DNA of 64,000 nt from a plasmid. Positions 16,709-36,690 of this stretch are shown here, in pieces. The stretch lies in the sequence record NZ_CP049149.1. One strand, given 5' to 3'. Position 1 is the stretch's first letter. Every line of letters starts with the position of its first letter. The notes under the pieces are model-generated. The model was given only the letters and a program-made list of their open reading frames with translations. It did no database searches and was not told the DNA's origin. A program made the translations under genes and the position numbers.

Positions 16709-16939
16709 ATGGCATACCCGACGAACGTCGTAGCGCTCGTTGAGAGCGATTTTCTGGCCAAAGCCCGTGACATGATGAAAGATCGCGAAAAGGCTTTCAG
16801 TCTGTACGAATGGTCACTCAAATGCCTGCACGCAGGCGAGCATCGCGAGTTGCTGGAGCAGCTCTTAGGCGAACTTATCAATGAGGTGTTTGCACTCAAT
16901 GTCCAGCTTCATGGGCGAGATAATAACCAAACAGTTTAA
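16709..16939 (+). CDS. hypothetical protein (76 aa)
   Basis: ATG with AAGGAAAA SD downstream of palindrome element. Confidence 0.4.
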   Translation: MAYPTNVVALVESDFLAKARDMMKDREKAFSLYEWSLKCLHAGEHRELLEQLLGELINEVFALNVQLHGRDNNQTV

Positions 16940-17470
16940 TAGGTAAGTACAAACTATTTTAAGCCGTGATCGCCAGTGATAAAATCTCCGCGCTGGCAGA
17001 TGTATCTGCCAGCTCGACCTGATGGGTGGGGGATAGCGTCACTGGCGTCAGGTTTAAAAAAGCCCACTACCAGCGTAGAACCGGCACCGTTTAGGGGTTG
17101 GGGAAGGGGGAACCAAAGTGGGCAGAGACAAGGGTCACTTTATGATTGTCGAGTCTGGGATGTTTCGAGAGGTTGAATCCAGTACTCCCCTTCATAGAGT
17201 GTGGGAAGATCTCGGTTCTGGGGTGCTGTCATCCATAACTTCCCAAGCCTAAGCTGGCAGTAGACTTAGGTCATAACTTTTCAGGTTATGTAACGACCAG
17301 GTTGGTGAGGAATTTTTGTACTCACCTCCCTGGGAGAGTATTACCTGAAAAGACAACCTCTCACTTCGTTCGAGGTGAACTTCACTCACTTCGTTCGTTC
17401 AGTTCAGGGGATTTAACCCCTGTTCTGGGAAGTAAGTTTTTTTATTAATTTAAATACTTTACACGCACGC
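16940..17470 (+). other. 530-bp non-coding, hairpin-rich region (possible structured RNA/regulatory DNA)
   Basis: no credible ORF; perfect 20-bp palindrome CTGGCAGATGTATCTGCCAG (16993-17012), G-rich tract, direct repeat TCACTTCGTTCG x2, CAGGGGATTTAACCCCTG hairpin, then AT-rich block. Confidence 0.3.
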
Positions 17471-17524
17471 GTGCGCACACGCGCGAGGAAAAAAATCGTC
17501 GCGGCGCGCGTTTCTGGAGCCACC

Positions 17525-29271: not shown

Positions 29272-29775
29272 ATGGGGAGAAATACACGGATGGAAGTCGA
29301 GATATGTGGTGTTGCAAATGTGCCGGAACTAGCCCATCTTTTTGTTGAAATGGAGGATTATTACTTCGGTCGCGGCGTTGTCAGCTATGAGGATATGAGC
29401 GCTTATCTTGCTGACAAAGTATTCTCTACTTATTCAGGCGTTACGGTTGTTGGTGCTCGTAAAAAAGGAGAGCTTGTTGGATTTGCCACTTTTTCGCTGA
29501 TGTTCCCCGCGCCGCTTTGTTCCGGTCAGGCATTTATGAAGGAGATCTTTATATCAGAAGCGGTACGAGGCCAAGGTGTCGGTAAATCGCTAATTAGGTT
29601 TATCGCAAACTTTGCCCTCAAACACGGTTGTTCACGCCTTGACTGGACTGCGGAGAAGTCCAATCCGAAAGCCGGAGAGTTTTACTTGTCCATTGGTGCC
29701 ACTCTAATTGAAGAAAAACAGTACTTTAGGCTGGAGGGGAAGGATCTCGAGACGTTTTCTTCACTCGCTGAGTGA
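29272..29775 (+). CDS. GNAT-family N-acetyltransferase
   Basis: acetyl-CoA motif A RGQGVGKSLIRFIANFA; ~45% GC; alternative ATG at 29290 has better SD. Confidence 0.7.
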   Translation: MGRNTRMEVEICGVANVPELAHLFVEMEDYYFGRGVVSYEDMSAYLADKVFSTYSGVTVVGARKKGELVGFATFSLMFPAPLCSGQAFMKEIFISEAVRGQGVGKSLIRFIANFALKHGCSRLDWTAEKSNPKAGEFYLSIGATLIEEKQYFRLEGKDLETFSSLAE

Positions 29776-29866: not shown

Positions 29867-30271
29867 ATGACAATTTTAGTGACGATACAGAGCCAACTTG
29901 TTGTTGGTGAGGCGCAGGTGATAAAGAGCTTGGCTCCTGAAGGGATGTTGGCAGCCGTTTTCGAGGACGATGGTGAAACCGGGTATTTCTACGCTCTTGA
30001 TGAGTCTGTCGACGGCAACGCCATTCAAGACGCAGTACATATTTACAACGTAGAAGATATTGCGGATGGAGATATCCCTTCTGACGTTAAAATCGGCTGG
30101 TCTCAAGATAGTCAGAAGTGCGTGCTTCTGATCAACGGTTATCCCTACGGGGTGTTCGATTTCGTGGGCAAAAACGGGTATTGCAGAAGTGGCTTTCCTC
30201 CACCGATTAATGATACATGGTCGGCATCCGGTCATGAGTGGAGCGACGCAGTGGATGATTTTTTTCGATGA
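29867..30271 (+). CDS. hypothetical acidic protein (134 aa) downstream of GNAT
   Basis: GGAGAGTGG SD; the fully overlapping minus-strand ORF has no RBS. Confidence 0.5.
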   Translation: MTILVTIQSQLVVGEAQVIKSLAPEGMLAAVFEDDGETGYFYALDESVDGNAIQDAVHIYNVEDIADGDIPSDVKIGWSQDSQKCVLLINGYPYGVFDFVGKNGYCRSGFPPPINDTWSASGHEWSDAVDDFFR

Positions 30272-31147: not shown

Positions 31148-31464
31148 TGCTGACATTCAACGAATCCTATAAGACGGCTGTGATCGGCACCGCCCATGTC
31201 ACGGGCAAAGACTTTTAGCTGCTGCCTGTCGTGTGCTTTGACCCATTGACCGATCGCGGACTGAATTGGGTACACGGCACACAGTACGGCTGGATTGTTC
31301 GTGCGGGAATTCGAGGGAATGACTGGAGGGAAGAATTGCATGAGTACGGCATTTCGAAAGAGACGATCTCAAACACACAGACCATACTAGATGCCGGATA
31401 TGACGCGGTACATTTTGACAGTGATGTGGAGCTGGTGGATGGGATACCGGCATGGGATTGGTAA
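31147..31464 (+). pseudogene. small gene interrupted by in-frame amber codon
   Basis: ATG 31147 overlaps previous stop (TGATG); same frame runs to 31464 apart from TAG at 31216-31218. Confidence 0.35.
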
Positions 31465-31477
31465 GGGAGAGAAAAAG

Positions 31478-31672
31478 ATGACGGCAGAAGACGTGATTAA
31501 TGATGTGCTGGTGGAGCTGGGTAAGCTACCTGATCATCTCCTCATAGCCACCGTATTTGACAACATACCTGCTGAGTTAAAGGCCCTGGCCAATGAGTGG
31601 GGATGGATGGATACGGAAGTTAGAGAGCAGCTATATGCGATAGCCTGGCGGATTGTTAACGCGCAACAATAG
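31478..31672 (+). CDS. small hypothetical protein (64 aa)
   Basis: AAGGGAGAG SD before ATG 31478. Confidence 0.45.
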   Translation: MTAEDVINDVLVELGKLPDHLLIATVFDNIPAELKALANEWGWMDTEVREQLYAIAWRIVNAQQ

Positions 31673-31823
31673 CCTGCAACGCGTTGACATTGGTGGTCAC
31701 TAATTGAGGATTTCTATAAGAACTCGTTGATCGCCCTCTTCCCTACTCTCCAACTTCATACACTCCAGGCGCGGCAAGGCTTTTACGCACATAACACCCA
31801 CAAGAAAACAAATAAATAATACA

Positions 31824-32009
31824 TCAATGAAAAGTCAACGCTTTACCCTGATTTGGTCCAAAAAGTTGACGTTTTGCCATGTCACTTCTTATATCCGTTA
31901 AGCAGCGTACCAGAGACCAACACCCTGCGACGAAAACGCCAAAAACGACTCCTGATACCACCACAAAACAGACATGCTCAGAATGGCTCTCGTTGCGTTT
32001 AATGAGCAT
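31824..32009 (-). CDS. small membrane protein candidate (61 aa)
   Basis: minus-strand copy of promoter repeat at 32013-32030 abuts ATG; one TM segment; no SD. Confidence 0.25.
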   Translation of the reverse strand: MLIKRNESHSEHVCFVVVSGVVFGVFVAGCWSLVRCLTDIRSDMAKRQLFGPNQGKALTFH

Positions 32010-32039
32010 ATAAACAAATTGTTTTAGGCATTAAGAAAA

Positions 32040-32640
32040 CAACAAAACAAGATAACGAAGAAAAGGAACTGCCATTACCCACACCCAGGCAATACCCACC
32101 TCTTCCTGCCAGGCTACCGAAAAGACCAACCTCATTGCCCTAGGCTACCGACCCCATGAAGCAAACCTCGAGCACTACCAAAAAGCGACAAGAGAAAGGC
32201 AATTTCTCTGAACGCCATTCCCCCAATACACGGAAGAGATACCCGGGAAGAAACTCCAGACCAGAACAGTCCCCGGCGTCATATCGTTTACCCACTCTTA
32301 CCCCGAAAGATAACGCAAATTCCTGATTAGCAGGGAACGCCATTACTTCACATAAGGAGAACTACAACAGACCAGAAATCACATCACCCACACTTCCACC
32401 TCTCAAGGTAAACGAAAGGAAAAGCGCACACGCCATTACTCCATACACAGAGAAGAACTATCCCCAAAACGAAGAATACAGACCAGAGGAAAACCACAAG
32501 AAAACCATCTCTACAACATCTGCAAAACCACTTACCGGCAGAGAGAAGAAAGTCGCCTTTTCTCCCATACGAATGGTCACCGTATAGAGCGCTAATAAGA
32601 GAGATACGAGTCCCCATAAGAGAGGTTATTCGAGTCAGGA
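32040..32640 (+). other. 600-bp untranslated strongly A+C-rich, G-poor tract with degenerate direct repeats
   Basis: G ~15%, C ~30%, A ~40% on coding strand; recurrent ACGCCATTAC and AGACCAGA units; opposite-strand ORFs encode implausible G/T-codon proteins. Confidence 0.5.
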
Positions 32641-32810
32641 AAGAGCACAGATATAAGAGAGAGGGGATGGCGGGGGATCGCTCCCTTTCCCGTATTTATT
32701 CAAGTCATGATTTTATCCCCCGTAACATCCCTGCGGTCGAACGAGTGAAAGGGCTACCGCGAAAATCAATCGGGAGCGTCCCCGCAGGGGAAAGGCTGGC
32801 TGCCTGAGTG

Positions 32811-32843
32811 GAAACGGCTGGAGGTTTTTCGGGAAACGGCTGG
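32811..32843. repeat. iteron-like direct repeats GGAAACGGCTGG x2
   Basis: two copies 21 bp apart; related triplet at 36167-36232; both loci preceded by CTCCCGCAGGG-like sequence. Confidence 0.4.
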
Positions 32844-33080
32844 GTTCCCGTCATGGAAAGGGGGCGTGTCGGTATAGAGACAAAATGCCGCGGGGACGGC
32901 TGATTCTCTGGCGGTACACCGTTTGGTGCGCGGGTGGCTTTCTTCCCGCTGCGCGCAGCTGCTGATACGTATTCTGCCAGAGCGTTCGAGGGTCACAAGC
33001 TGTTTCAGTAGGTTTTAGGGAAGAGGAAAATACTGCTCACCAGCCCTGCGGTGCGCGTTGAGAAGAATAATGTAAAAAGC

Positions 33081-33131
33081 GCTCCCGATACGCTCCCGGA
33101 TACTCACTACTTTTCCAGTTCTCCCCGATAC
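33081..33131. repeat. direct repeats CTCCC(G)GATAC x3 immediately upstream of a promoter repeat
   Basis: copies at 33083, 33094, 33121. Confidence 0.4.
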
Positions 33132-33209
33132 AAAATGCTTTTTAGCCTATGTCTTATTGCGATAATAACACCAACGAGAAAACAACGTGTTTAGACAATG
33201 GAGAAAAAC

Positions 33210-33428
33210 ATGTACAAGCATTTGAACATCAGCATCACCCTTTGCGGAGAAGAGACATGTACTGACGAACTCCAGATCTCTCTGGATGACGTTATCCGCT
33301 CTGCGGATGTCGCTGGGCGCATTGGTACGTTGATTGGCGAAGGGTATCGCGAGGGCACGTTTGATTTTCATATCGAGGACAACGCAATGTCCGTCGCGTG
33401 GAACTGCACAACGTCAGAGTCCAGATAA
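33210..33428 (+). CDS. small hypothetical protein (72 aa)
   Basis: GGAGA SD 5 nt before ATG 33210; promoter repeat at 33159-33196. Confidence 0.45.
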   Translation: MYKHLNISITLCGEETCTDELQISLDDVIRSADVAGRIGTLIGEGYREGTFDFHIEDNAMSVAWNCTTSESR

Positions 33429-33440
33429 AGGAGGAAGACA

Positions 33441-33653
33441 ATGAATATGCCTGTGATTGTGGAAGTATGGAGCGTGGACTCGCTGGCCGAATGTCTTGAT
33501 GGCGTAGGGCCAGCACTGACCCGTAAATTATGGTCGTTTGTACCAGCTAAGGGAGAGTCACCCAAAGGGAAGGATGTTTGGCACCTGCTGACTGATGAAG
33601 AGAAGCGGGAGCTGGTGGCCGCAGTGAAAGAGGAGTTCCCTGACGAAGATTAA
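33441..33653 (+). CDS. small acidic hypothetical protein (70 aa)
   Basis: AAGGAGGAAGACA SD before ATG. Confidence 0.5.
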   Translation: MNMPVIVEVWSVDSLAECLDGVGPALTRKLWSFVPAKGESPKGKDVWHLLTDEEKRELVAAVKEEFPDED

Positions 33654-33658
33654 CAACG

Positions 33659-33678
33659 GCCACCAGCAGGTGGCTTTT
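33659..33678 (+). terminator. rho-independent terminator
   Basis: GCCACC AGCA GGTGGC + TTTT. Confidence 0.5.
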
Positions 33679-33789
33679 GAGTGATTGTGGCCTGCGGCCA
33701 GCTGAATGCCGGAACGCTTCGCTTGGTGGCCGTTTTCACACTGGTATTATTTACACCAACAAGAAAACAAATTGTTTACGGAGTGTGCA

Positions 33790-34101
33790 ATGAATACCGA
33801 GATGATTTTGAAACTGGATAAGCTCCAGCCTCGCAAAGACAAACCTGCAGTACTCGGTTCGATCACTTTACTGGACATAGTGGCCAACGGCACAGCCATC
33901 CGACTTTTCAAAGAGACCGTTGTCGTCTTCGGCGAAACTTCTCGCAAGCGCATTGTAATGAACGTCCGGCGCTATAGTGCGAAAGGGTGGGTAGCTAAAC
34001 AAGTTATCTGGCCTGAGTCAGATCTGGAGTTGGCTTTACTGGAAGTTAACAAGGTCGCCCAGCAGGAAATTCAACGCGCAACAACCCTCGCCATAGCATA
34101 G
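33790..34101 (+). CDS. small hypothetical protein (103 aa)
   Basis: promoter repeat at 33750-33785 then ATG 33790. Confidence 0.5.
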   Translation: MNTEMILKLDKLQPRKDKPAVLGSITLLDIVANGTAIRLFKETVVVFGETSRKRIVMNVRRYSAKGWVAKQVIWPESDLELALLEVNKVAQQEIQRATTLAIA

Positions 34102-34134
34102 TCATGTGCAACACAGATTAGTCGAATTTACGAC

Positions 34135-34163
34135 AGCCCCGTCGATCCTTCGGGGCTTTTTTG
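34135..34163 (+). terminator. rho-independent terminator
   Basis: AGCCCCG ... CGGGGCT hairpin + TTTTTT. Confidence 0.6.
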
Positions 34164-34220
34164 TATTGTAAGTACTTACCTATGGCGATAGTATTACGAC
34201 GCATTTACATGGAGGTAAAA

Positions 34221-34628
34221 ATGAGTTTGACCAAAGAAGATTTAGTATTTGACCTTTACTACGCATCCAGCACTGACGAAGAAGGCAATAAACTGGCCCA
34301 GCTGACCGTTCAGTTCCGTGATGCATCGGCTGTTCCGCATGTGACTACCCAGCTGGCCCGCACAACTCTTAAGCGTGATCGCTCGAAGGTTTATGCCGTC
34401 GGCGAGCAATCCGTGAAAAATGGTTCGGACACTCTGCTGGCCGCCATTGAAGCCTATTATCGAACAGACCCGAAGACCATTTTCGAAAACCTGATGGCAC
34501 AGGTTCAGGATATGATCGAGGGCAACCTGGGCGCCAACAATACCTGGGTTGGTTCATACGGCATAACCATTGTGTCTGGCGGCTCTCTGGAAGAGTATCT
34601 GCCTGAGTCCGTCTACAACGTCCAGTAA
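34221..34628 (+). CDS. hypothetical protein (135 aa)
   Basis: GGAGGTAAAA SD before ATG 34221; preceded by palindrome GTAAGTACTTACCTAT. Confidence 0.55.
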   Translation: MSLTKEDLVFDLYYASSTDEEGNKLAQLTVQFRDASAVPHVTTQLARTTLKRDRSKVYAVGEQSVKNGSDTLLAAIEAYYRTDPKTIFENLMAQVQDMIEGNLGANNTWVGSYGITIVSGGSLEEYLPESVYNVQ

Positions 34629-34636
34629 ACCAGCCA

Positions 34637-34662
34637 ATGGCGCGTAACCCGCGCCATTTTTC
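34637..34662 (+). terminator. rho-independent terminator
   Basis: ATGGCGCG TAACC CGCGCCAT + TTTTT. Confidence 0.6.
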
Positions 34663-34756
34663 CCCAACCCGTAAACAAGTTGTTTTATACCTTTTCTGAG
34701 TTGCGATAATAACACCAATAAGAAAACAAGTTATTAACGAAGTGGAGGAAATGTTC

Positions 34757-35131
34757 ATGGGACTTGATATCTATATTGAGACGCAGCCAAAAAACGATCT
34801 GAATAACGAGGCATCCAGAAAGCAAGTTGGCTACTTCCGTAAGTTCAATGCTCTCGTTGGGTGGATGAACCGTAACGTAGGTGAAGTTGTAAATTGTGAA
34901 CTTTTAGAAGTTACGATGAATGATATTTGTGCTCTCAAGGCTGATTTGATTCGTCTAAACGAAAGCAATTGTGAAGAGTATCTGCCTACCCAGGAAGGGT
35001 TTTTCTTCGGTAGTCAGGAGTACGATGAAGGGTACTGGAATGACGTGGAAGAGCTGAAAGAGCTTGTGGATGAGCTGATTAAAAATCACGACTTCTACAA
35101 TAACAGACTGACATTTTGCGCCTGGTGGTAA
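34757..35131 (+). CDS. hypothetical protein (124 aa)
   Basis: promoter repeat at 34700-34735, GGAGG SD 8 nt before ATG 34757. Confidence 0.5.
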   Translation: MGLDIYIETQPKNDLNNEASRKQVGYFRKFNALVGWMNRNVGEVVNCELLEVTMNDICALKADLIRLNESNCEEYLPTQEGFFFGSQEYDEGYWNDVEELKELVDELIKNHDFYNNRLTFCAWW

Positions 35132-35133
35132 AT

Positions 35134-35415
35134 ATGACTGATTTCACCATCTCCCCGAAAGCAGAAAACGTATGGCTGGAATCCTGGCTTGACCTGTCGC
35201 CGGCCGAGCAAAAAGAAATGGATTACGTCGAACCGGACGAACAAACCAGCTCCCGCTTCTTCCATTATCAGGATAGCGTTTATGACATTGCCGATTTCAT
35301 GCGCGATGACCGCTTCCCGGAATGGCACGCCGGCTATCCACTGAATGCCTTCGCTATGCTGATGATCCGCGTGACAGATTCAGACGACACCATCGACATC
35401 GGATTACTTCATTGA
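35134..35415 (+). CDS. acidic hypothetical protein (93 aa)
   Basis: ATG 2 nt after previous stop. Confidence 0.5.
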   Translation: MTDFTISPKAENVWLESWLDLSPAEQKEMDYVEPDEQTSSRFFHYQDSVYDIADFMRDDRFPEWHAGYPLNAFAMLMIRVTDSDDTIDIGLLH

Positions 35416-35619
35416 GAGAGGAGAGTCACCGATGCTGGTGGCTCTTAATTACCACCTACTTTCCCCAGGCTAAAAACACCCACCTCTTACCGCCAGGCTA
35501 CCGAACCACCCACCGACTTCCCGACGGCCACCAGCTGCCGAAACAGAACGCTTGGACGCCTCACACCCACTGCGATAATTAAACCAACGAGAAAACAAGT
35601 TGTTTAAAGGATTATCACA

Positions 35620-36102
35620 ATGAACTATATCGCCACTGTAAACACTCCCGCGCATGGCACCATCTCTGTCACATACTCCGACATTGAAAAGAACATCCTG
35701 GGCGCCTGGCGCGAAGAAGAGACCATCCAGCTGTCCGGGAAAGAGAAGCAGCAGATCGCCAAAGACATCATTTGCAACCGTCGATTCACGCGGGTATTTG
35801 AGAAAGCGTATGTGGTAAATTCTGGGTTTGGAACATTTGTCTTCCCGGTGCGCTCCGGGAGATTCTGTCAGTCCAAGCTGACTGAGTTTGCCTCGCAGAT
35901 CGCTATCTGGATTAAGACTCAATCGTCGTTCGATTTTAGCGATGATGAAGCAATAGCGCAGGGTATGCGGATCGCCAACAATGCAATTAAATACAAAAAC
36001 ATCACGTATGCCGCTGGCGTTGACTCATGGAAACTGTTTTGCGCTAACTTTATGCTGAATGTATTCGCCAGCAATCGGATTCACATACTGGCTGGCAAGT
36101 AA
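35620..36102 (+). CDS. hypothetical protein (160 aa)
   Basis: promoter repeat at 35570-35605, AAGGA SD. Confidence 0.55.
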   Translation: MNYIATVNTPAHGTISVTYSDIEKNILGAWREEETIQLSGKEKQQIAKDIICNRRFTRVFEKAYVVNSGFGTFVFPVRSGRFCQSKLTEFASQIAIWIKTQSSFDFSDDEAIAQGMRIANNAIKYKNITYAAGVDSWKLFCANFMLNVFASNRIHILAGK

Positions 36103-36166
36103 GAGGGGAGGGGGCTGGAAATGCCCCTTTCTTTCCGTCCACCAGCTCCCGCAGGGAAGATTTTCA

Positions 36167-36232
36167 GAAACGGCCAGAAGTCCATCAGGACAACCGAAGG
36201 AAACGGCCAGGGAATTTTAGGGAAACGGCTGG
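36167..36232. repeat. iteron-like direct repeats GAAACGGCCAG / GGAAACGGCCAG / GGGAAACGGCTGG
   Basis: three copies spaced 32 and 21 bp in a non-coding region; homologous to 32811-32843 locus. Confidence 0.4.
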
Positions 36233-36690
36233 GGTCGCCTTCAGGTAGAAACAGAGCGGGAGATGCCCAGAATCGTATCAGCCATCACGCGGAAAGAATC
36301 AGCGGAAGCTGGTGGGCGCTTTAACCCCTGAGCCATACAGACAGCTTTCGCTACGTGATTATGTGCATCAGTGGGTAAGCCACCGCCAGCGCGCAGACGT
36401 CGCGCCAACGTGATAATCATATGCCAGCGCCAGCACGTCATGCCAGTATTGCCGACACGCCCCGAAAGAAAGCGCATCGCCACCAGCAGACACCAGCAGC
36501 ACCCATCACCAGACAATCACATCCACAACCACACCAGAAAAGCCATGCGCTAAAACGCAACACCTCGCACTGTGAGCGCTCGTTATTGTGGGTAATGTGT
36601 ATGTATTGGGAAGGAATAAAACGCGTCACAGTGGCGCTTTTTAATGGGTTTATTTTCGTGATAGCTGGTGGAGAAAAGACAATAAAAAAT

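Follow-up and report, generated by a model that had tools for sequence, protein, structure and literature searches.

A conserved, A/C-rich untranslated tract in an SSU5-like phage-plasmid as a possible Rho-dependent insulator

We analyzed a 64,000-nt stretch of plasmid record NZ_CP049149.1, read on one strand from 5' to 3' (the window), which belongs to a Klebsiella SSU5-like phage-plasmid. Its largest stretch free of open reading frames (ORFs) is a module of about 1.5 kb, in which an A/C-rich block is followed by a G-rich block. The genes around it are all on the + strand: early genes and genes for nucleotide metabolism and replication come first, and small genes without a known function follow. 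A preliminary description of the same sequence had singled out positions 32040-32640 as an untranslated, C-rich, and G-poor tract, and had proposed it as a Rho-utilization (rut) region or a non-coding RNA. We found no description of this region in the literature searched. The features of the module and its surroundings are collected in Table 1.

Composition, conservation, and coding potential

The bias of the tract is real and non-random. Base counts on the + strand of 32040-32640 were A 0.374, C 0.298, G 0.175, and T 0.153; the C content of about 30% given previously was thus correct, while G was 17.5% and not 15%, and A was 37% and not 40%. The bias was present over the interval first described but is wider, spanning ~31700-32640. 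A+C content peaked at 0.68 in the tract, the maximum of the 64 kb, compared to a window mean of 0.50 (standard deviation [sd] 0.03). C exceeded G in 92% of 78-nt windows over 31700-32640, with a median C/G of 1.79, and YC dimers were slightly over-represented in the tract (z = 2.3). The mean minimum free energy was -19.5 kcal/mol per 150 nt in the tract compared to -41.3 kcal/mol (sd 9.0) for the entire + strand, no other ~900 nt of + strand RNA in the window being as poor in structure as the A/C tract. These two analyses, sliding-window C/G and structure prediction, had been suggested as checks, and both agreed with the expected C-over-G, unstructured RNA. Shuffles of the same composition were no more structured than the tract, and excess folding was absent on both strands (z from -0.76 to +1.67 across the tract and portions of it, each against its own shuffles). 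From base-pairing rules, it is the joint depletion of G and U that would make the RNA unpairable.

Two shorter tracts, previously noted for the same composition, were also recovered: C was 0.44 and G 0.15 at 35440-35570, and C was 0.37 and G 0.18 at 36400-36560. Both were within the 25 least-structured 150-nt windows. A second large ORF-free gap of the window, 16937-17524 (588 nt), is balanced in composition and had no Rfam match at the gathering score; its predicted structure was above average (-0.39 kcal/mol per nt), unlike that of the A/C tract.

Positions 31700-32700 were 94-95% identical to six Klebsiella phage-plasmid records and plasmid pKP389-3. A distant-mode search with 31680-33200 matched 911 PLSDB plasmids from Klebsiella, Escherichia, Enterobacter, Salmonella, Citrobacter, and Cronobacter; phages SSU5 and Cyrano also matched. 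The motif A block was present in 236 of 5426 complete E. coli genomes. Homology with SSU5, Cyrano, and plasmids of Enterobacter, Citrobacter, and E. coli begins abruptly at ~31680, whatever gene precedes it, and the arrangement of an A/C block followed by a G-rich block is kept at 61-72% identity in SSU5, Cyrano, and plasmids of E. coli, Enterobacter, Citrobacter, and E. fergusonii. A search of genome contigs for distant relatives by way of the phrog_1641 protein returned one locus only, and a pattern search of viral contigs returned SSU5-like contigs only.

The tract was 0.73 identical to its counterparts in SSU5 and Enterobacter. Identity at 4-fold degenerate sites of six flanking orthologues was 0.45 (n = 198 and 194), and was ~0.54 in two adjacent genes. 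Compared to Cyrano, the excess was small (tract ~0.59 vs 0.52) and the genes are mosaic; therefore, patchy conservation is the safer statement. Blocks of 10-27 nt were invariant in 20 sequences and were separated by near-randomized spacers. The commonest class of difference between homologues was A<->C exchange (27%, compared to 9% in the adjacent G-rich part). The base composition of the 20 sequences was A 0.35-0.40, C 0.29-0.32, G 0.13-0.17, and T 0.16-0.18, and the length from the 5' stem-loop (SL1) to the right arm of the long-range complement was 887-927 nt in all 20. Judged from these alignments, composition and length are maintained on top of particular motifs. Because the A/C profile recurs at 60-73% identity in Salmonella, Escherichia, Enterobacter, and Citrobacter elements and A<->C differences dominate, the composition is judged to be selected and not inherited.

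The module and many early genes are gone from Y. pestis pMT1, which we take to be a defective phage. There, the insertion sequence (IS) IS1541 lies between nrdB and an immediately adjoining canonical promoter/operator unit, which precedes the orthologue of gene 35116-35415. Because pMT1 is maintained without it, the module is dispensable for plasmid maintenance. One Klebsiella plasmid has an IS5 inserted within the module, and several large Klebsiella plasmids (170-340 kb) have only its first 745 nt.

The tract was confirmed to lack a credible ORF, and a conserved translated ORF, a finding that would have told against an untranslated tract, was looked for in homologues and not found. ORFs were short on both strands and not co-linear among homologues. 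Stop-to-stop frames of five homologues matched similarly in all frames of both strands and were not co-extensive, and mismatches in the tract had no 3-periodicity (all chi-square p > 0.09); the same substitution test applied to an adjacent real gene gave the expected third-position excess. Indels between lineages were not multiples of three. PGAP annotation was blank across the module in each relative inspected, and non-PGAP annotators placed inconsistent small ORFs on either strand. Coding on either strand was rejected, as the six frames match about equally without co-linearity or periodicity. Stop triplets were under-represented in the tract (14 vs 26 expected) because T sits in pyrimidine contexts. 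Small hydrophobic peptides on the - strand, starting from an ATG inside GTAATGGCG, were also rejected, with ~20 codons in common followed by frameshifts; likewise, only the first ~20 codons of the - strand ORFs annotated in SSU5 and MK422451 match the window ORF before indels shift the frame. A pseudogene of the gene at the second locus of these motifs (phrog_1641) was rejected, as similarity was absent.

Rfam 15 gave no match in the window at the gathering threshold, only chance-level hits (E 0.66 and 2.1), and searches for tRNA and tmRNA found none. Internal sigma-70 promoter candidates were all non-conserved; the -10 candidates near 31998 differ between lineages, with key bases missing in most of them. 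A sponge for Hfq or CsrA was rejected, with counts of (ARN)n/AANAANAA and GGA motifs at shuffle expectation and very low expression in the Cyrano lysogen. An antisense action on host genes was rejected as well, as the motif A block had no chromosomal E. coli match at BLAST sensitivity. Antitermination had been named as a possible function; no antitermination factor or site was identified. The conserved CUCUUAUACC (31886-31897), of which the GCUC part differs between lineages, is only loosely like the boxA consensus CGCUCUUA of lambda-type nut sites, and no N-like gene was identified, no dedicated nut test having been made for either.

The 5' edge and transcription in Cyrano

SL1 stands at the 5' edge of the module. 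Its outer helix is 9 bp long, UGG(C/U)GGUCA with UGAUCGCC(A), and its inner helix differs in sequence between each of three lineages yet is paired in all of them. Single-sequence folds gave -11 to -21 kcal/mol. A G.U pair was present in 19 of 19 distinct sequences, and the helix was 98.8% paired. The G.U pairs of SL1 and of the 3' hairpin can form only in + strand RNA. On its predicted fold, SL1 is a candidate protective 3' stem-loop for upstream transcripts. The first 60 nt past SL1 had mean C of 0.38 and G of 0.13 in 20 homologues, yet only 17% of columns were invariant, and the G-free run that follows the stem-loop is the best candidate for a primary rut site.

At Rho-dependent 3' ends, a stable stem-loop that lacks a U tract has been described, with a region of C over G immediately behind it (Dar & Sorek 2018, PMC6061677). 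This architecture is present at 31691-31767 and again at 35422-35530.

Further complementarity lies inside the module. GUCAACG in the conserved block 31826-31876 is complementary to CGUUGAC at 31682-31688, and the block has little covariation. The 8-nt long-range complement flanks ~750 nt of the tract; its arms are invariant in relatives save a matched C-to-U/G-to-A in the Klebsiella lineage, and this one compensatory change from C-G to U-A was not significant compared to shuffles. An invertible switch of the fimS type acting on the 8-bp inverted repeat was rejected, as the flipped state was found in 0 of 434 plasmids spanning the junction.

Transcription of a homologous module can be read from the S1 table of Misson et al. 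(PMC9928086), RNA-seq of E. coli LF82 carrying Cyrano. Values are log2(5+FPKM), FPKM being fragments per kilobase per million reads, for duplicates of LB (overnight), B1 and B6 (in vitro), and MB1 and MB6 (macrophages); they are gene-level counts without 3'-end maps, from which the type of terminator is not readable and for which the strandedness of the library is not established. CYRAN_102, upstream of the module, had values of 6.0/5.64 in LB, 7.4/7.68 in B1, 9.21/9.04 in B6, 8.43/8.29 in MB1, and 6.88/6.74 in MB6 (range 5.6-9.2, or ~45-590 FPKM; PMC9928086). CYRAN_103 is a spurious ORF that begins ~50 nt past SL1 and spans the first third of the tract. Its values were 2.32-2.90 (0-2.5 FPKM) in LB, B1, and B6, and 3.35/3.63 and 4.27/2.85 in macrophages, where 3 of 4 samples were at ~5-14 FPKM (PMC9928086). 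CYRAN_104, in the G-rich part, had values of 2.6-4.7, and CYRAN_105, the first downstream gene, rises independently to 7.5-7.8 (PMC9928086). In MB1, CYRAN_103 was at only 5-7 FPKM while the operator-controlled CYRAN_105 was at ~200 FPKM (PMC9928086). With CYRAN_102 high and CYRAN_103 low, transcription from upstream appears to stop at the 5' edge of the module in Cyrano (~31700-31800 in the window), and the tract is nearly silent in lysogens.

Table 1. Features of the module and its surroundings, in coordinates of the window
Feature	Position	Strand	Basis or remark
Upstream small gene, 93 aa, phrog_10191	31391..31672	+	ORF list, PHROG match
Gene-free module, largest ORF-free stretch in 64 kb	31680..33197	+	ORF-free gap list, homology
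SL1, two-tier stem-loop without U tract	31691..31736	+	RNAalifold, single-sequence folds
Full A/C-rich, G/T-poor, structure-poor untranslated tract	31700..32640	+	32040-32640 is its 3' two-thirds
G-free, C-rich run, 34 nt, directly after SL1	31734..31767	+	
Highly conserved block, inverted repeat CGAAAAGUCAACG ... GUUGACGUUUUG	31826..31876	+	alignments, RNAalifold
Left arm of 8-nt long-range complement, CUUAUAUC	31888..31895	+	
Putative operator AAACAANTTGTTT inside module, without recognizable conserved promoter or downstream gene	32012..32024	.	
Motif B copies, GCCAUUAC(Y)(Y)	32071, 32214, 32339, 32432 (32071..32441)	+	
Motif A array, two ~31-nt units CCACCUC-N8-CAGGCUACCGA	32091..32152	+	
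Right arm of 8-nt long-range complement, GAUAUAAG	32650..32657	+	
3' hairpin rich in G.U pairs with U-rich tail, intrinsic-terminator-like	32664..32703 (hairpin 32664-32693)	+	terminator scans, RNAalifold
Motif C array, GG(G)AAA(C/G)GGCUGG x3, 22-nt spacing	32788..32843	+	in G-rich part of module
Canonical promoter/operator unit of gene 33198-33428	33139..33198	+	-10 TGCGATAAT 33158-33166, operator 33180-33192
Second instance of the design: 9-bp stem-loop 35422-35445, then C-rich motif A array 35452-35530	35422..35530	+	
Intrinsic terminator GGGGC/GCCCC with UUUCUUU (36110-36136), then motif C copies 36199-36232	36110..36236	+	sequence, alignment to 32655-32850
AAACAANTTGTTT copies, first eight	7702, 7727, 18961, 19675, 20389, 28314, 29010, 30457		
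AAACAANTTGTTT copies, last eight	30886, 32012, 33180, 33765, 34673, 35593, 44694, 44719		

Repeats, 3' hairpin, and neighboring cassettes

Degenerate direct repeats and a shared segment of about 30 bp had been noticed in the tract previously, and both were found again. The repeats correspond to GCCATTACYY (motif B), all copies of which are on the + strand, the 32214 copy with 1 mismatch; the last three copies extend to ...AYACRGAGAAGAAC, and the block near 32432 is almost invariant over ~27 nt in the 20 sequences. The shared segment belongs to motif A: 31 nt at 32091-32121 are 90% identical to 35475-35505. Motif A is kept in all lineages and has three units in SSU5-type relatives. A further repeat, CAGACCAGA, has 4 copies in the window vs 0.47 expected, three of them exactly 111 nt apart at 32257, 32368, and 32479, and one elsewhere. 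The 111-nt spacing was seen only in the Klebsiella lineage, other lineages retaining the first copy alone, which suggests local homogenization of a unit of ~111 nt. Motif C has weaker copies to ~32900 and two further copies at 36199-36232, and is kept in relatives including Cyrano. Its two loci are 3.4 kb apart, and each lies ~90-125 nt downstream of a terminator-like hairpin.

The 3' hairpin is conserved with AU/GC and GU/GC exchanges. Both the window and Cyrano-type sequences have a U-rich tail behind it, where SSU5-type sequences have UAGAAAUUC. The terminator at 36110-36136, which follows gene 35620-36102, is paralogous to it and has a clear U tail. The stem-loop at 35422-35445 lies directly past the stop of gene 35116-35415, its 3' arm being a Chi site, and is kept, with the C-rich motif A array after it, in six homologues including those of SSU5, Enterobacter, E. 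coli, and Y. pestis pMT1.

The genes upstream of the module are variable cargo and differ in every lineage, IS elements included; the region looks like a cargo hotspot that ends exactly at 31680. In the window, this cargo includes a GNAT acetyltransferase (29272-29775) and a DUF2251 protein (29867-30271), and close relatives have a GIY-YIG nuclease, DUF6602, or IS elements at that position instead. Replication proteins encoded by the element include RNase HI and a UvsW-like helicase. Searches of Pfam, PHROGs, and PDB yielded nothing on the functions of the proteins neighboring the module, and a pentatricopeptide repeat match of the 33706-34101 protein was dismissed as an artefact of summed repeats.

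A 13-bp palindrome, AAACAANTTGTTT, occurs 16 times in the window vs 0.24 expected. Its usual place is between an extended -10, TGCGATAAT, and the Shine-Dalgarno sequence or start codon of small + strand genes; this position suggests an operator, probably for a master repressor that controls many early promoters. The operators of C1 in phage P1 have a dispersed layout, and that of AAACAANTTGTTT resembles it. Two pairs have a 25-nt spacing, 7702/7727 and 44694/44719, the second of which immediately precedes the packaging/late genes. SSU5-type sequences have a half-site 25 nt downstream of the operator inside the module, the same spacing as in these pairs. Each neighboring cassette is self-contained and comprises a promoter, an operator, a gene, and a terminator.

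The 64 kb contain 23 copies of Chi (GCTGGTGG) vs 2.0 expected. Of these, ten are in the 5.3 kb surrounding the module (31431-36671), in both orientations, with none inside 31680-33197, and a similar cluster is present in Enterobacter and Cyrano relatives.

A Rho-dependent insulator and the alternatives

We propose, with a probability of roughly 45%, that the tract forms the main part of an insulator of transcription, conserved and untranslated, which works through Rho and stands between the variable cargo and the repressor-controlled early cassettes. The features sought in a rut site are found together here: RNA that is transcribed but untranslated, C-rich and G-poor over at least ~70-80 nt, poor in structure, and preceded by a stem-loop without a U tract. 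We infer transcription into the tract from upstream from gene orientation and the RNA-seq of the upstream gene of Cyrano. By its sequence, the element is filed as an unusually long, motif-rich, fixed-length variant of a Rho-dependent terminator or insulator.

In the proposed mechanism, + strand transcripts of the upstream cargo gene would shed their ribosomes at the stop codon (31672), and SL1, a predicted and conserved structure, would form at 31691-31736. The ribosome-free RNA beyond SL1, C-rich, G-poor, hardly pairing, and G-free at its start (31734-31767), would extend for ~0.9 kb; Rho would load on it, catch RNA polymerase, and terminate transcription. Exonucleases may then trim the RNA back to SL1, as the 3' ends studied by Dar & Sorek 2018 would suggest. 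Positions 32040-32640 would be a redundant Rho-loading zone, at best a back-up, and the G.U-rich hairpin at 32664-32703 would be the last intrinsic stop. Jointly, they would shield the downstream cassettes, each with a promoter and operator of its own, from transcription of the often expressed cargo (moron) genes. A further layer could be formed by the internal operator and the invariant arrays, with protein binding and possibly regulated read-through. A role in polarity between accessory cassettes, raised in the preliminary description, would fit this layout of small genes individually equipped with promoter, operator, and terminator.

The classical Rho-dependent terminators are lambda tR1 and trp t'. 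The tract resembles E. coli-type Rho terminators (PMC6061677) in that untranslated RNA past a stop codon has a stem-loop without U's and then a weakly structured region of C over G; its first ~60 nt conserve composition and not sequence, and the transcript level appears to collapse there in a homologue. It differs in a C>G zone ~10 times longer than needed, a fixed length, invariant arrays, an operator, and a second hairpin. Rho-dependent control has reportedly been described in the immunity systems of other mobile elements, as polarity control in c4-icd-ant of the phage-plasmids P1/P7 and in the timm terminator of the satellite P4. Both are like the system proposed here in that Rho termination in untranslated RNA silences lytic or anti-immunity genes; they use a small antisense RNA with defined targets, and neither such an RNA nor such complementarity was found here. 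The promoter-early stem-loop (PeSL) repeats of T4 are promoter units and stem-loops between small early genes, and are like this region in their repeated promoter units (here ~60 nt with operator), stem-loops, and variable genes between them. The PeSL units are short, however, and we know of no 0.9-kb A/C-rich spacer described there.

Several observations weigh against a plain Rho terminator. About 80 nt suffice for Rho, and a rut site needs composition only. The fixed length of 887-927 nt, ~0.9 kb, is not explained by rut, nor are motif blocks of 10-27 nt that stay invariant in 20 sequences. T is as depleted as G, and Rho binding does not call for this. The operator at 32012 has no role in a plain terminator, and the 31790-32030 block, the 8-nt long-range complement, and the 3' hairpin are not accounted for by rut alone. 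Identity of the tract to SSU5 and Enterobacter is well above that at 4-fold sites of the flanking orthologues, those of the two adjacent genes included. Covariation of all the proposed helices together was not above shuffled controls in the 20 sequences, and the helices are, therefore, treated as conserved complementarity and not as proven structure. Finally, the drop in Cyrano lies at the 5' edge, and 32040-32640 is therefore not needed for the apparent termination there. The rut proposal of the preliminary description thus stood in part: the untranslated state, the C>G bias over ~0.9 kb, the minimal structure, and the SL1 design agree with it, as do the common strand of the surrounding genes and the expression drop in Cyrano, while the motifs, the fixed length, the operator, and the 3' hairpin are left unaccounted for.

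Some of these features would suit a regulated RNA device, which we consider unlikely. In such a device, a fixed-length unpairable A/C RNA would carry motif arrays that dock a phage or host factor; the factor would switch Rho termination off after induction, as in a conditional insulator, or make the RNA a Rho trap, and the G-rich iteron-like arrays might couple transcription to lytic replication. That the tract is a long non-coding RNA with a function in the lytic programme is quite improbable. It would be an unpairable A/C scaffold of ~0.9 kb, bracketed by SL1 or the 8-nt helix and by the 3' hairpin, in which motifs A and B bind phage or host factors; in one version, it would be a Rho decoy that relieves termination genome-wide or locally after induction. 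The selection for unpairability, with both G and U depleted and A<->C exchanges dominant, would be expected of such an RNA, as would invariant direct-repeat motifs in a single orientation, a fixed length, conserved + strand hairpins at the bounds with a long-range complement that has one compensatory change, and a repressor operator just upstream of 32040-32640, as at regulated early promoters. However, no conserved sigma-70 promoter and no Rfam family was found, expression was 0-14 FPKM across the ten Cyrano samples, Hfq (ARN) and CsrA (GGA) motifs were not enriched, and no complementary E. coli chromosomal target was found at BLAST sensitivity. The non-coding RNA offered as the alternative in the preliminary description has neither a promoter nor an Rfam family in its favor, nor expression in lysogens. 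The protein sponges CsrB/CsrC and CrcZ (Pseudomonas) and RARE (the mgtCBR leader), a cis-acting element that antagonizes Rho, are also unstructured RNAs with repeated short motifs that titrate or trap an RNA-binding protein; the tract is unlike them in that GGA and ARN/AANAANAA are not enriched, neither a promoter nor expression was detected, and its motifs are unrelated to theirs.

The module could also act as DNA, as a cis element of the lytic cycle, either a lytic origin or a platform for proteins. The motif A, B, and C arrays would then be binding sites, and the A/C tract a spacer or transcribed activator region. The region is the largest non-coding one and is conserved amid variable cassettes; it has three repeat families, each in a single orientation, with motif C at a spacing of two helical turns, again at 36199-36232, and also in Cyrano. 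The element encodes its own replication proteins, the cluster of Chi sites surrounds the module, and pMT1 is still maintained as a plasmid with the module missing. Against a DNA element, the strand-asymmetric composition is held even in the variable spacers, which points to a single-stranded, strand-specific function, and the G.U-dependent hairpins point to RNA. DnaA boxes and a marked AT-rich unwinding element were absent, cumulative GC skew had no inflection at the module, the motifs are unlike RepA iterons, and no initiator could be assigned among the neighbors. We regard this explanation as doubtful. A RepA iteron origin or incompatibility locus was rejected: in a relative, RepA iterons (TATGCTGTCAGCGGT), DnaA boxes, and a GATC cluster adjoin rep ~29 kb away, they differ from motifs A, B, and C, and pMT1 is without the module. 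In that relative (NZ_CP166762.1, 10900-12900), a classical origin adjoins a RepB-family rep, with DnaA boxes in tandem, five copies of AGATCC, and about ten TATGCTGTCAGCGGT iterons. Very improbable is that the tract consists of functionless decayed gene cassettes or promoter units kept by linkage. Promoter/operator relics at 31791-31811 and 31993-32024, the motif A and hairpin-plus-motif C that flank a real gene at the second locus, and natural copies that tolerate IS5 insertion and truncation are consistent with decay. However, the tract is present across genera, with its length and composition conserved amid varying neighboring genes, identity exceeds that of 4-fold sites, blocks are invariant, no residual similarity to the gene of the second locus is left, and the extreme, maintained A/C bias is not a product of decay.

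SSU5-like phage-plasmids are common in Enterobacteriaceae and carry resistance and other cargo genes. If the tract is a Rho-dependent insulator, it would be a built-in device that lets the element acquire promoter-bearing cargo without disturbing its repressed early genes, and it would explain the coexistence of variable cargo and a conserved lytic programme. As a genetic part, it would also serve as a terminator that is compact, portable, and orientation-specific. The module, a non-coding element of large size and strong conservation, is passed over by annotation pipelines, and its invariant repeats and fixed length make it a candidate regulatory site of the lysogeny-lysis programme.

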